From a virus, in IMG/VR virus record IMGVR_UViG_3300032030_000014, positions 67,919 through 131,918 of that record: a stretch of 64,000 nt of DNA. One strand, 5' to 3'. Below, in pieces: positions 20,496 to 23,403 of this stretch. Positions within the stretch are counted from its first letter, which is position 1. Each line of letters starts with the position of its first letter. A program made the translations under genes and the position numbers. Under the pieces are notes generated by a model, which saw only the letters and a list, made by a program, of their open reading frames with translations, ran no database searches and was not told where the DNA came from.

Positions 20496-20894
20496 ATGCC
20501 ATACTAGCCTACACAAAATTATTATTATCAACCTCAACAAACTCAGGTACGTTAGCCCTTAATAGGACTTAAAGGACGTCCAGTGTCTGGATTGGAAGAG
20601 GTTAGAGCTGCTGCAGTCGACTTCGATGGAACGATTTCATTCTTTCCCGATTTGGCCAATGGGAAAATTTATACGAAGCAATGTAATGTAGATGGAACAG
20701 CTTCATTAAATATGTATGAAATCAAAGAAATCCCAGCGACACCAGCATCAAATCCAAACGCATATGTCACTAGAGAAGAATTTAACTAGACAATGACAGC
20801 ATTAAAATAGGTATTGGCGCAAGCTAATCTTGTAAAGGAGAGTTCTGATCAAACTCAGCCTCAACAAACTTCTACTCCTGAATTCAATTTTTAA
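20496..20894 (+). CDS. hypothetical Q/Y/P-rich protein (~132 aa, five TAGs)
   Basis: AAAGGAGG ribosome-binding site 7 nt upstream. It is in frame with ORF 20583..20789. TAA stop at 20892-20894. Confidence 0.45.
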
Positions 20895-20913
20895 AGAAAG
20901 AGAGGTTTCTTAA

Positions 20914-21153
20914 ATGGCAAATCCTTTAATGCAATTTATGCAAATGATTAGGAGTGGCGGCAATCCTTAGACAATGGTAATGAATATGCTCCAATAGCAA
21001 GCAGGTAATAGCCCAATGGGATAGAATCTACTTAAAATGGCTCAAAATAATGATGGAAAGGGGATTGAACAAGTAGCTCGTAATTTGTGTGCACAAAGAG
21101 GCCTCGACTTCGACAAAGAATTTGCTGCTTTTAAACAGCAACTAGGATTATGA
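20914..21153 (+). CDS. hypothetical small Q/M-rich protein (~79 aa, four TAGs)
   Basis: AGAGAGG ribosome-binding site. Translation MANPLMQFMQMIRSGGNP-Q-TMVMNML-Q-QQAGNSPMG-Q-NLLKMAQNNDGKGIE-Q-VARNLCAQRGLDFDKEF... TGA stop. Confidence 0.4.
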
Positions 21154-21167
21154 AGGAGGAAAACTCA

Positions 21168-21974
21168 ATGTTTAACACAAGTGAAGGCTATAGTTTATCT
21201 GACATCGCTGCTGCTACTGGCAATCGCGGTGGGATGTTTGGCGACGGCGCCGGTTTTGGCGGATGGTGGATCATTTTACTCTTCCTGTTTGCTTTTGGCG
21301 GATGGGGTAATGGCTTCGGCGGAGGCTGGGGCAATGGTGGCGCAAATAGCGTAACCGCAGATATTGGCTACAATTTTGATATGCATGATGTATCTTCTGG
21401 TATTAGAGATCTTGCTTCTAGCACAGCAAACGGTTTTTATAATCTTAATACCGGTTTACTGAATGGCTTCTCTAGTACTTAGGCTCAAATTTGTAATACT
21501 GGCTTTGATACCATTCAGGCTATTAATGGTTAGACCGTTAGTGCACTTCAGAGTGCAAATGCACTTCAGGCTCAGTTGGCCGCACATAGTGCTGATGAAC
21601 AACTTTGTTGCTGCCAGACTCAGAATCGTATTGATTCTAACTTCGCAACCCTTAACTATAATCTTGCTACAGAAGCTTGTGCCGATCGTGCTGCAGTTAC
21701 TACTGGCGTCCGTGATATTATTGATAATCAGAACGCTAATACTCGTCAGATTCTTGACTTCTTAGTTCAGGATCGTATTACTGCTCTTACTACTGAAAAC
21801 GCAGCTCTTAAAGGCCAGATTTCTCAAAGTGAGCAGAATGCTTATCTCATTAATGCCTTACGTCCAGCTGCAGAACCCGCTTATCTTGTAGCAAATCCAT
21901 ACACCGGCACAATCGGTACCTATGGATATAATGCCCTGTATGGCGGACCAGTTTGTAACGGATATATGGGTTAA
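21168..21974 (+). CDS. Gly/Trp-rich membrane protein (~268 aa, two TAGs)
   Basis: GAAGGAGGA ribosome-binding site before the ATG at 21168; the track ORF starts at 21150 without one. ORFs 21150..21482 and 21576..21974 share a frame. Hydrophobic segment WWIILLFLFAFGGW flanked by GFGG/GNGG repeats. C-terminus NPYTGTIGTYGYNALYGGPVCNGYMG. Confidence 0.5.
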
Positions 21975-21990
21975 TTAAGGAGGTTAAGCA

Positions 21991-22416
21991 ATGATGGAAA
22001 TAACTGCTAATGCAGCTCAAATAGTAGCTGTAAATTAGGCTGTCCTTTTCACAGAAACCGCAGTTCCAGGTAACTGTTCTATGATTCACAGAGAAGGAAG
22101 CGGATTAGTTGGCTTGCGCGGACTTCCAAATGGTTAGTTTCGTGCAAGATTCCTCGTTGAATTCGGTGCAAATATCGCGGTACCTACTGATGAAACAGTA
22201 GGTCCCGTGAGTCTTGCCATCGCAATCAACGGAGAGCCTGTTGTCACTTCAAGTATGATTTCAACGCCAGCCGCAGTCGATTAGTATAATAACGTTAGTG
22301 CAAGCATTTACATTGATGTACCTATTGGATGCTGCAGTTAGGTTAGTATAGAAAATACTAGCACTATCCCTGTTAGCGTTCAGAATGCTAATTTAATTAT
22401 TGAGAGGGTGGCGTAA
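21991..22416 (+). CDS. BclA C-terminal-domain-like (C1q/TNF-like beta-sandwich) protein, ~141 aa, five TAGs
   Basis: AAGGAGG ribosome-binding site. The C-terminus ...ASIYIDVPIGCCSQVSIENTSTIPVSVQNANLIIERVA matches the characteristic ending of the Bacillus exosporium BclA C-terminal domain (...SLALGTSASIIIEKVA). No collagen-like repeats. Confidence 0.5.
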
Positions 22417-23098
22417 TGGAAGCAATTAAAACAATTAAAGAACAATTAATCGCCCAGGTTTAGGGACAAATGGGAGATTTAAAATGCGTTGATGCTAAAG
22501 AACTAGGAGAAGTTATTGATATGATAAAAGATTTAGCATAGACAGAATATTACTGTGAAATTTATAAATAGATGAAAGAAGCATCAGAAGAAAAACCAAC
22601 TGATACAAATAACTATTATTACACAGAACGCTATTTCCCAACTCCTCCTATGCCAAGCTACTATAGAGATATGGATAGACCTTTCGGAAGAATGTATTAT
22701 CCAGAAGGTGGAAACAACTCTGGTTCCTCTTCAAACTCTTCTTCTAGCGGTAATAATGGTAGCAGCGGCAACAACGGTATGTCTTATTATACTCCAATGA
22801 ATGGATATTATCAACCAAATCCTTGGGGTGGATATGAAGAAGAACCTTATTACGATAAGGATTTTATTCTTCAGCACTTGCGTGACGAGCGTGAAGGACG
22901 CAGTCCAATGAAGAGAAAAATGTATATGGAAAGTAAGAGCTCTGGATAGGATTCTAATAAATCAATGAAAGAATTAGAAAGCTATATGCAGGATTTAACT
23001 TCTGATATGATGGATTTATTAGATAAGGCTTCTCCAGAAGAAAAAGCTATAGTTTAGAAAAAAGTAAATACTTTAGCTGCGAAGATCCAAAATGTTTA
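22416..23098 (+). CDS. Tyr/Gly/Ser-rich hypothetical protein (~227 aa, about six TAGs)
   Basis: Its ATG overlaps the upstream TAA (TAATG). It is in frame with ORF 22572..22949 and extends past that TAG to a TAA at ~23096. The motif YYYTERYFPTPPMPSYYRDMDRPFGRMYYPEGG...YYTPMNGYYQPNPWGGYEEEPYYDKDF resembles spore-coat-like composition. Confidence 0.4.
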
Positions 23099-23403
23099 AT
23101 ATTAATGGAATAGATTGGGAGATACGCTTTGCGTCTCCCAATCATCCTAAATTAAAAAGACAAGATAATTCTTATGCTCTTGGATGTTGTGATAGTTCAA
23201 CTAAAACTATTTATATAAATGAAATTGTGCCGATGAATAAATTAAAAAAAGTGCTTTGTCACGAAATTACACATGCGGCAATGTTCAGTTATAGAGTTGA
23301 ACTAGACTTAATTCAAGAAGAACTCATAGCCGATCTAATTGCTACATATGGCTCTGAAATTATTGAAGTTACAAATCGTATTTTTAGCCATATAGCGAAA
23401 TAA
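23092..23403 (+). CDS. small HExxH zinc-metallopeptidase-like protein (SprT/ImmA-like), 103 aa
   Basis: LCHEITHAAMFSY carries an HExxH motif. An upstream Cys pair GCCDSS. TAA stop at 23401-23403. Confidence 0.45.
   Translation: MFNINGIDWEIRFASPNHPKLKRQDNSYALGCCDSSTKTIYINEIVPMNKLKKVLCHEITHAAMFSYRVELDLIQEELIADLIATYGSEIIEVTNRIFSHIAK

Follow-up and report, generated by a model that had tools for sequence, protein, structure and literature searches.

The closest described counterparts of the phage protein considered here are proteins of the Bacillus exosporium. BclA and F-BclA (exosporium nap and F-ENA tip fibrillum; PDB 1WCK and 9H38) carry a C-terminal jelly roll of the TNF/C1q type, and ExsFA/BxpB (ExsF; PDB 7R1M, 8D02, and 9H3D), the anchor of the exosporium basal layer, has a similar fold as a stand-alone protein. 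In the crystal structure of ExsF, the TNF-like trimer holds a proline-rich leader in the cleft between subunits (PMC12357932). TNF-like knobs are also known from phages, as in the tail fibers of cyanophages A4 and A-1(L), PRD1 P5, the knob of Sf6 gp9, and the receptor-binding protein of lactococcal phage 1358, and these knobs are fused to stalks. Here we describe a knob-like protein, g4, that is instead a separate polypeptide encoded in a multigene cassette together with proteins that have a hydrophobic segment or low-complexity regions. The cassette, genes g1 to g6, lies at 20496 to 23403 on the plus strand of a 64,000-nucleotide stretch of viral DNA (IMG/VR record IMGVR_UViG_3300032030_000014, positions 67,919 to 131,918), which is referred to as the window. 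It was compared with 39 loci from phage and genome collections, collected with iterative hidden Markov model searches, and with the best 80 of at least 575 IMG/VR stretches that encode a g4 relative; individual loci are given L numbers where they must be told apart.

The product of g4 (plus strand, 21991 to 22416, or from 21994 if the second ATG is the start; 141 or 140 amino acids, 4 in-frame TAG codons) is predicted to be a stand-alone TNF/C1q jelly roll with the C-terminal domains of BclA and F-BclA, along with ExsFA/BxpB, as its nearest structural relatives. The AlphaFold2 model, built from a 75-sequence alignment, is all beta, with a predicted local distance difference test score (pLDDT) of 97.2. 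In a Foldseek comparison of the model with the PDB, the F-BclA C-terminal domain ranked first (E = 2e-7; template modeling score, 0.76 to 0.79), followed by the BclA C-terminal domain (4e-6), ExsFA, ExsF, and BxpB and then by EDA, 4-1BBL, C1q, and cerebellin. The initial annotation had described g4 as a C1q-fold protein resembling the BclA C terminus. The model bears out the fold, whereas sequence comparisons did not connect g4 with BclA. The Pfam model BclA_C (PF18573) did not match g4 at E values up to 1, PDB searches with g4 sequence profiles of 36 or 75 members retrieved neither BclA nor any other solved chain, and g4 is only 14 to 18% identical to the BclA and F-BclA domains. At the sequence level, g4 belongs over its full length to phrog_20016 (E = 1.5e-52), a family of unknown function. 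The nearest models in a viral structure library were stand-alone proteins of 130 to 142 amino acids from uncultured gut phages, two of them automatically annotated as "BclA protein." Structure matches also showed that the fold is common in the tips of phage fibers and spikes.

Unlike BclA and F-BclA, g4 has neither a stalk nor an N-terminal targeting region, and its gene is phage encoded and of the late type. The best 150 cluster representatives of the g4 family are all stand-alone domains of 52 to 196 amino acids, a length that leaves no room for a stalk. None of them contains a collagen-like GXY stalk, and g4 itself opens with the first beta strand. The family is large, comprising 4625 clusters at 90% identity and 673 at 50% identity. 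Because its members are always stand-alone and stalkless, a partner must position g4. In fold and in stand-alone architecture, g4 is like ExsF, and by analogy with the proline-rich peptide that ExsF clamps, the candidate partner peptide would be the conserved Pro/Tyr-rich C terminus of g3. However, g4 has no sequence-level kinship with ExsF, and the g3 motif does not satisfy the exosporium leader model.

The gene for g3 (plus strand, 21168 to 21974; 268 amino acids, 2 TAG codons) is always the adjacent gene upstream of g4, which supports a role as its partner. The protein begins with a short acidic tail, followed by a hydrophobic segment (WWIILLFLFAF) flanked by Gly and Trp (18 Gly and 4 Trp in residues 17 to 60), a long Q/N/A-rich region that is probably helical and usually retains a CCC motif, and a Pro/Tyr-rich, sometimes also Cys-rich, C-terminal motif. 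The last of these, LRPxPxPAYxVxNPY, is conserved with nearly invariant prolines and is often followed by Cys/Gly repeats. W34, G45-W46-G47, C149, and S219-Q220 are invariant in the family alignment, and the ratio of nonsynonymous to synonymous substitution rates (dN/dS) for g3 is 0.07 to 0.10. The family corresponds to phrog_16490 (E = 4.6e-30), for which no function is known. No signal-peptide-like N terminus was found in any of the six products of the cassette. Two other identities for g3 were considered and rejected. A relationship to viral class I fusion proteins was suggested by influenza HA2 in the PDB profile search, but the E values of 0.4 to 0.6 are at chance level. A tblastn match to a "spike protein/glycoprotein" open reading frame (ORF) of a crAss-like phage covered a coiled-coil stretch only and was not used.

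The genes of the cassette are real, are read with TAG as glutamine, and are of the late type. With the standard code, the region from 20.4 to 23.4 kb is a patchwork of short ORFs, whereas six co-oriented ORFs fill 20496 to 23403 once TAG is treated as a sense codon, and the whole window resolves into long genes when TAA and TGA are the sole stops. Minus-strand proteins of 1907, 2653, and 2810 amino acids contain 22 to 70 in-frame TAG codons, and plus-strand replication genes contain almost none. The TAG share of codons is 1.89% in the cassette, which compares with 1.75% in the minus-strand late block, 1.70% in the neighboring pair of holin and m1 genes, and 0.43% in the early block. In homologues, including the standard-code relatives L012 and L017, the residue opposite TAG is Gln in 305 instances, with Glu next at 93. 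Four near-identical public contigs with independent gene calls gave the same product lengths of 132, 79, 268, 140, 227, and 103 amino acids, and all six genes are under purifying selection (pairwise dN/dS of 0.03 to 0.17 against two relatives). The low dN/dS and matching gene calls, together with the TAG density and alignment to Gln, are the basis for this conclusion, and a TAG codon that is in frame within conserved genes, stands opposite Gln in homologues, and is more frequent in late genes is the signature of genetic code 15. Thus, the late-type TAG density reported in the initial annotation was confirmed, and its description of six heavily recoded genes holds for five of them, g6 having no TAG. 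No tRNA gene, including any for a suppressor tRNA(CUA), was found within the window; contigs with identical g4 and g1 reach 160 to 200 kb, which is about the size of the full genome, so a suppressor gene may sit beyond the window. AGGAGG-like ribosome-binding sites precede g1 to g4. The g5 start codon lies on the g4 stop, and g5 and g6 also overlap, an arrangement that suggests coupled translation. The GC content rises to 43% at 21001 to 22000, over g3, from about 30 to 35% in the surroundings; Gly/Ala-rich coding is a plausible cause, but a foreign origin of the cassette is compatible with the rise as well.

The five-gene core is strictly syntenic across more than 100 loci. In about 39 loci from the phage and genome collections, on every contig of sufficient length, the genes are arranged as g1-g2-g3-g4-g5 and all point the same way, and order and strand are also kept in the 80 IMG/VR loci. 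Searches with tblastn found g3 and g4 adjacent to each other in uncultured gut phages, lemur "Dulem" viruses, and Ceridwen, a cultured Butyrivibrio phage (cassette products among QHJ73766 to QHJ73772). BLAST missed the homologues of g1, g2, and g5, which were recovered by translating the neighboring DNA. The core was seen in three genomic contexts. In about 37 of the 80 IMG/VR loci, from recoded phages of 70 to 200 kb, it lies at the boundary between holin and replication genes (holin-g1..g6-m1-RuvC-dUTPase). In the other approximately 43 loci, from phages of about 44 kb, it lies among head genes (minor capsid-pap-sig-g1..g5-scaffold-MCP, where MCP is the major capsid protein and pap and sig are genes for the papain-like and sigma-region-4-like proteins described below). 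In temperate phages, among them Ceridwen, Dulem 33, L036, L038, and L027, it is flanked on one side by the endolysin gene or the last late gene and on the other by the integrase gene or lysogeny module. Ceridwen and Dulem 33 have the capsid family of the 44-kb group, yet their cassette is placed elsewhere. Two cultured phages with related capsids, Dorea phage DO134P1 (52% MCP identity) and Flavonifractor phage Chenonceau (48%), lack the cassette, and their slot is filled by unrelated small genes, regulators among them. A scan of IMG/VR with the holin for relatives without the cassette returned one locus.

The presence of the cassette in three contexts and its absence from phages with the same capsid family indicate that it is a dispensable, co-inherited, horizontally mobile accessory module that lands in insertion hotspots. 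In this capsid family, the slot between minor head and scaffold genes is a hotspot that takes up accessory genes of unrelated kinds. In Chenonceau (L126, 2899 to 5307) and in L125 (4123 to 4827), it holds ORFs for an XRE-type regulator, an Arc-like repressor, and a GIY-YIG-like protein. The location among head genes was therefore rejected as proof of a capsid role, because related phages hold unrelated accessory or regulatory genes there. Insertions within and near the cassette were also seen. A homing-endonuclease-like ORF separates g4 from g5 in Ceridwen (L001, 9467 to 10261), Dulem 33 has another, on the opposite strand, that splits g2 from g3 (L002, 7413 to 7964), and one strain of the window phage has a GIY-YIG gene between dUTPase and RuvC (L041, 6106 to 6765).

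In these respects the cassette resembles the morons and lysogenic-conversion cassettes of Firmicutes prophages, which are accessory and mobile, have their own upstream element and terminator, are found at hotspots that include the junction of lysin and integrase genes, and are missing from close relatives. It differs in having five to seven co-evolving genes where those have one or two and in being found as well in large, recoded, apparently lytic phages, in which TAG restricts it to late infection. The initial annotation regarded neither virion decoration nor a module acting on the host spore or cell surface as expected at this locus. That view is overstated, as this strictly syntenic module is widespread, has PHROG families of its own, and in relatives is found again where the late region ends.

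The remaining core proteins are of low complexity, with short conserved segments. The product of g1 (plus strand, 20496 to 20894; 132 amino acids, 4 TAG codons), invariably the first gene of the core, has a variable Q/Y/P-rich N-terminal head, a small beta-rich core, a C-terminal helix that starts with (Y/F)VT(R/K)EEF, and the tail EFNF. In the large-phage variant, g1 always ends with a hydrophobic residue, any residue, and Phe (EFNF, EFKF, LNF, LDF, or MKF; 20880 to 20894 in the window), which looks like a docking motif. It belongs to phrog_21718 (E = 1.4e-7), a family of unknown function, and its homologues number from 2738 to 7147, the latter being the count of proteins from a profile search. 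The AlphaFold2 model of g1, made from an alignment of close relatives (at least 71% identity), is of too low a confidence to be used (pLDDT, 56), and the dN/dS of g1 is 0.17. The product of g2 (plus strand, 20914 to 21153; 79 amino acids, 3 TAG codons) is rich in Q (15%), M (11%), and N and is probably helical; the gene keeps its place in about 30 of the 40 loci of the first round as well as in those from IMG/VR, with a dN/dS of 0.10. Neither the window protein nor 25 family members had a Pfam, PHROG, or PDB-profile match above threshold. An STI1/DP-type chaperone domain, for which Q/M-rich "NPxxM" repeats are characteristic, was considered and rejected, as neither Pfam searches with the 25 members nor PDB profiles matched STI1. 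The product of g5 (plus strand, 22416 to 23099; 227 amino acids, 5 TAG codons) has conserved helical N- and C-terminal segments around a center of low complexity rich in Tyr, Gly, Ser, Asn, and sometimes Arg (14 Tyr, 12 Ser, 11 Asn, and 11 Gly in residues 63 to 145), and it has the conserved motif RDxREGRSP...YME. The gene is syntenic across nearly all loci, and no family or PDB-profile match was found among 20 members. The window proteins g1 to g5 had no match in Pfam, NCBIfam, or PADLOC.

Two co-varying variants of the cassette were distinguished. Variant A consists of the core plus g6 (plus strand, 23092 to 23403; 103 amino acids, no TAG), which is confined to this variant. The g6 product is a minimal zincin-like protein with HEITH and a downstream EE, within the conserved pattern KVLxHExxHAAxFSY...EE..AD..ATYG; HEITH and EE are conserved in 18 members. 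It matched Pfam DUF6782 at the border (27.1 bits against a cutoff of 27), with SprT-like and M78 matches below cutoff, and it is assigned to phrog_1233 (E = 4e-17), of unknown function. Judged from the HExxH, the acidic third ligand, and the profile match, g6 is a putative zincin-like metallopeptidase. Variant B has, upstream of the core, a papain-like protein of about 125 amino acids (pap) with conserved GDC...H...DxWDSG, which looks like a papain-type triad, and often a downstream protein of about 105 to 150 amino acids (g7). A gene of about 70 codons resembling sigma region 4 (sig; weak Pfam match, E = 0.007) is often found just upstream of the cassette. Across their families in L001 to L039, g3 and g4 are depleted in Lys (medians, 1.3 to 1.4%, versus 6.4% for other phage ORFs), the window g4 having none, and enriched in Cys (4.4% in g3 and 2.9% in g4 versus 1.7%), with frequent but not invariant CCC and GCC motifs.

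We tentatively propose that, in phages infecting gut Bacillota, g3 and g4 form an anchor-stalk-knob assembly, exposed either on progeny virions or on the membrane of cells undergoing lysis; this possibility is put forward as the leading one among several. The scarcity of Lys and abundance of Cys that g3 and g4 share speak for it as well. In such an assembly, g3 would be anchored through the hydrophobic segment that Gly and Trp flank and would contribute a helical stalk and a conserved Pro/Tyr-rich C-terminal peptide, and the BclA/ExsF-like g4, which we infer to be a trimer, would cap or dock on the g3 tail much as ExsF clamps the exosporium leader. Processing or maturation of a component might fall to g6 or the papain-like protein, and the low-complexity proteins g1, g2, and g5 might serve as adaptors, chaperones, or matrix. 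The assembly would be an optional surface structure made late in infection, and it would be made in the cytoplasm because no product has a signal peptide. Its role may be the adhesion or binding typical of TNF/C1q knobs; relatives of such knobs serve as trimeric heads for binding or as anchors that clamp a peptide. Virion decoration, which had been suggested in the initial annotation, is among the two most plausible readings of the cassette.

Several considerations weigh against this proposal. The docking of the g3 tail into a g4 trimer is suggested solely by analogy. Anchoring of g3 in a membrane is uncertain, because its Gly-flanked hydrophobic core is short (about 12 to 14 residues) and its Kyte-Doolittle maximum over 19 residues, 1.63 at residues 27 to 45, is borderline for a membrane helix. 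Moreover, a hydrophobic anchor is odd for a decoration on the capsid or tail of a tailed phage, and the functioning of the cassette in phages with unrelated virion architectures argues against a specific contact with a capsid lattice. Since the slot beside the capsid genes attracts insertions in general, location is a poor guide to function, and the sigma-region-4-like gene upstream hints at separate regulation.

It is also conceivable, though unlikely, that the cassette is an accessory to lysis or egress, in which g3, together with the holin and m1 and helped by g4 and the low-complexity proteins, would work at the cytoplasmic membrane to adjust or finish the disruption of the envelope or the release of particles from Gram-positive hosts. 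Throughout the large-phage lineage, the cassette adjoins the holin and m1 genes, and it comes after the endolysin in Ceridwen, Dulem 33, and L036. The late timing would suit such a role, as would the Gly-rich hydrophobic segment of g3 followed by a helical region, an architecture reminiscent of membrane-active or fusion-like proteins even though the HA2 match (E of about 0.4) is at chance level. However, in the approximately 43 IMG/VR loci with the cassette in the head-gene region, it is far from the lysis genes. Furthermore, no cassette protein matched any PHROG lysis family, TNF/C1q knobs have no known lysis role, and a set of five to seven co-evolving proteins exceeds the needs of known lysis accessories for Gram-positive hosts.

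The same head-gene loci bear on the rather improbable alternative that the products are packaged in the capsid and injected, as a disaggregated counterpart of MuF/polyvalent proteins that would act on the next host early in infection, with g3, for example, inserting in the membrane for DNA entry and g6 serving as an effector protease. In those loci the cassette follows directly after the minor capsid gene (Phage_min_cap2, E = 1.2e-64), and in the temperate phage L027, an 1881-residue polyvalent protein with MuF_C and LPD38 domains and an HExxH (9 to 5654) is encoded directly upstream of the cassette. Polyvalent proteins typically include small zincin domains of the g6 kind. Weak matches to the polyvalent-protein domain LPD3 in 7 of 34 g1 members (best E = 0.0018) and to TMP_2 in 5 of 25 g2 members point in the same direction, but all of them are under the curated thresholds. 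A TNF/C1q knob would be unexpected among injected proteins, and the large phages and Ceridwen have the cassette away from head genes.

A more specific form of the surface assembly, which we regard as improbable as well, is a portable kit of gut Bacillota phages that builds an exosporium-like "nap" away from spores, with virions or lysing-cell membranes as the decorated surface. Its parts would be an ExsF/BclA-like trimer clamped to the Pro-rich tail of an anchored stalk, a matrix rich in Q, Y, G, and C, and a protease- or transglutaminase-like enzyme.

The initial annotation saw in the cassette the hallmarks of spore coat and exosporium layers. If that were correct, a coat- or exosporium-like set, consisting of an ExsF/BclA-like trimer, cross-linkable proteins rich in Q, Y, G, and C, and a protease- or transglutaminase-like enzyme, would be deposited onto the spore or forespore of the host, or would remodel the surface of host cells. 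The chance that this is so appears slight. The g4 fold does resemble exosporium proteins, its top structural matches, and the compositional descriptions of the products were accurate; for example, the g1 N terminus is rich in Q, P, and Y, and g6 has HEITH. The composition of g1, g3, and g5 is coat-like, and the absence of signal peptides is as in coat proteins made by the mother cell. The Tyr-, Gly-, Gln-, and Cys-rich coat and exosporium proteins CotC/CotU, GerQ, CotY/ExsY, and CdeC/CdeM share both features with the cassette products. They have no detectable homology to these products, however, and the conserved, nonrepetitive motifs of g1, g3, and g5 are unrelated to them. The profile comparisons suggested earlier, with BclA_C and coat families, gave no match for the six window proteins or for family members. 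Coat families of Pfam and NCBIfam (CotD, CotY/CotZ, GerQ, CotF, CotJ, and others) were not matched at E values up to 5 by 34 members of g1, 25 of g2, 13 of g3, or 20 of g5, the NCBIfam exosporium leader (TIGR03720) was not matched by the six products at E values up to 1, and PDB searches with profiles of the g1, g2, g3, and g5 families brought up nothing informative, whether coat, exosporium, or other. What g1, g2, g3, and g5 have in common with coat proteins is thus compositional only.

Hosts and genomic setting also bear on this idea. Temperate phages carry the cassette in the classic place for lysogenic conversion, between lysin and integrase, a small helix-turn-helix gene of sigma-r4/GerE size is found upstream in many loci, and carriers are binned chiefly with Clostridia and other Bacillota. 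On the other hand, host assignments from bins of metagenome-assembled genomes are unreliable, some of these bins being Methanobrevibacter, Alistipes, or Akkermansia. The sole cultured carrier, phage Ceridwen, infects Butyrivibrio fibrisolvens, which is classically described as non-spore-forming. The recoded phages translate these genes only late in lytic infection, and TAG-dependent late expression in a phage of lytic type fits poorly with a role in spore maturation. The fold is just as typical of phage fiber tips, no g4 relative has a collagen-like stalk, and nothing specific ties the cassette to spores. A role as an antiphage defense system was rejected, as PADLOC defense models matched none of the six proteins.

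The genes on either side of the cassette are on the minus strand and are as the initial annotation described them, a pair of membrane proteins upstream and a fiber gene downstream. The holin (19917 to 20312; phrog_13712, E = 1.3e-27) is a companion of the cassette in the large-phage lineage, with homologues directly upstream of g1 in L007, L008, L013, L014, L018, L020, L021, and many IMG/VR loci. The second companion, m1 (19291 to 19782), encodes a protein of 163 amino acids whose N-terminal part contains a hydrophobic helix, along with a charged stretch that resembles a coiled coil. No endolysin was recognized beside the holin and m1 among the window genes scanned. Beyond m1, further upstream, are RuvC, dUTPase, NrdD/NrdG, and DnaE-type polymerase genes, which belong to a nearly TAG-free early block on the plus strand (1 to 19244). 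The DnaE-type polymerase gene (9867 to 13859) has no TAG, and the anaerobic ribonucleotide reductase NrdD and its activase are at 14356 to 17314, in the same block as dUTPase and RuvC. This early gene set points to an anaerobic host.

Downstream, the fiber-like gene (23444 to 29167; 1907 amino acids, weak Phage_fiber_2 match) is convergent with the cassette. It is hypervariable among strains with an identical cassette (L040 to L043), for which public calls give products of 1286 plus 459, 1636, 1500 plus 740, and 1907 amino acids, a picture typical of receptor-binding diversification. Between the two, a hairpin resembling a bidirectional intrinsic terminator (23405 to 23440, both strands), with a 16-pair stem and a T-run on either strand, would end both the cassette and the fiber-like gene.

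Upstream of g1 on the plus strand, the element AATTTTTTGGACAAAG (20395 to 20410), of which no other close copy was found in the window, may be a cassette-specific promoter or operator. Its core, TTTGGACAAAG, occurs once per locus about 90 to 100 nucleotides 5' of g1 in L007, L008, L040 to L043, and L047. The divergent intergenic region between holin and g1 also contains two perfect 13-bp palindromes, GGGAAAAATTCCC, 42 bp apart (20412 to 20424 and 20454 to 20466, plus strand), which recur solely in near-identical strains and, as one copy, in L046. Their position and duplication are suggestive only, and the number of matches is not above chance for the pattern alone. A function as a general late promoter was rejected because the only two copies in 64 kb are both here and their count is not above chance.

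In the literature on related topics, from searches not aimed at the cassette itself, no description was found of the five-gene core, its two variants, its three contexts, or its dispensability. The individual families are already in PHROGs as unknowns, and some g4 relatives have been labeled "BclA" automatically. For annotation, BclA-like matches in phages should not be taken as spore genes.

The cassette is common, strictly syntenic, and under strong constraint, yet all of its components are filed under unknown function. Its movement among very different phages and contexts suggests that it probably has a self-sufficient function that is useful to many gut phages, and the cultured carrier Ceridwen makes this function directly testable. 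If the cassette does encode a surface structure with a BclA/ExsF-like knob, it would bear on how gut phages stick to hosts, mucus, and debris, and it would link the surface architectures of phages and spores. If the cassette were a kit for an exosporium-like nap, the BclA/ExsF mode of anchoring would be an invention shared by phages and spores, and phages would be a possible vehicle or source of exosporium knob proteins.

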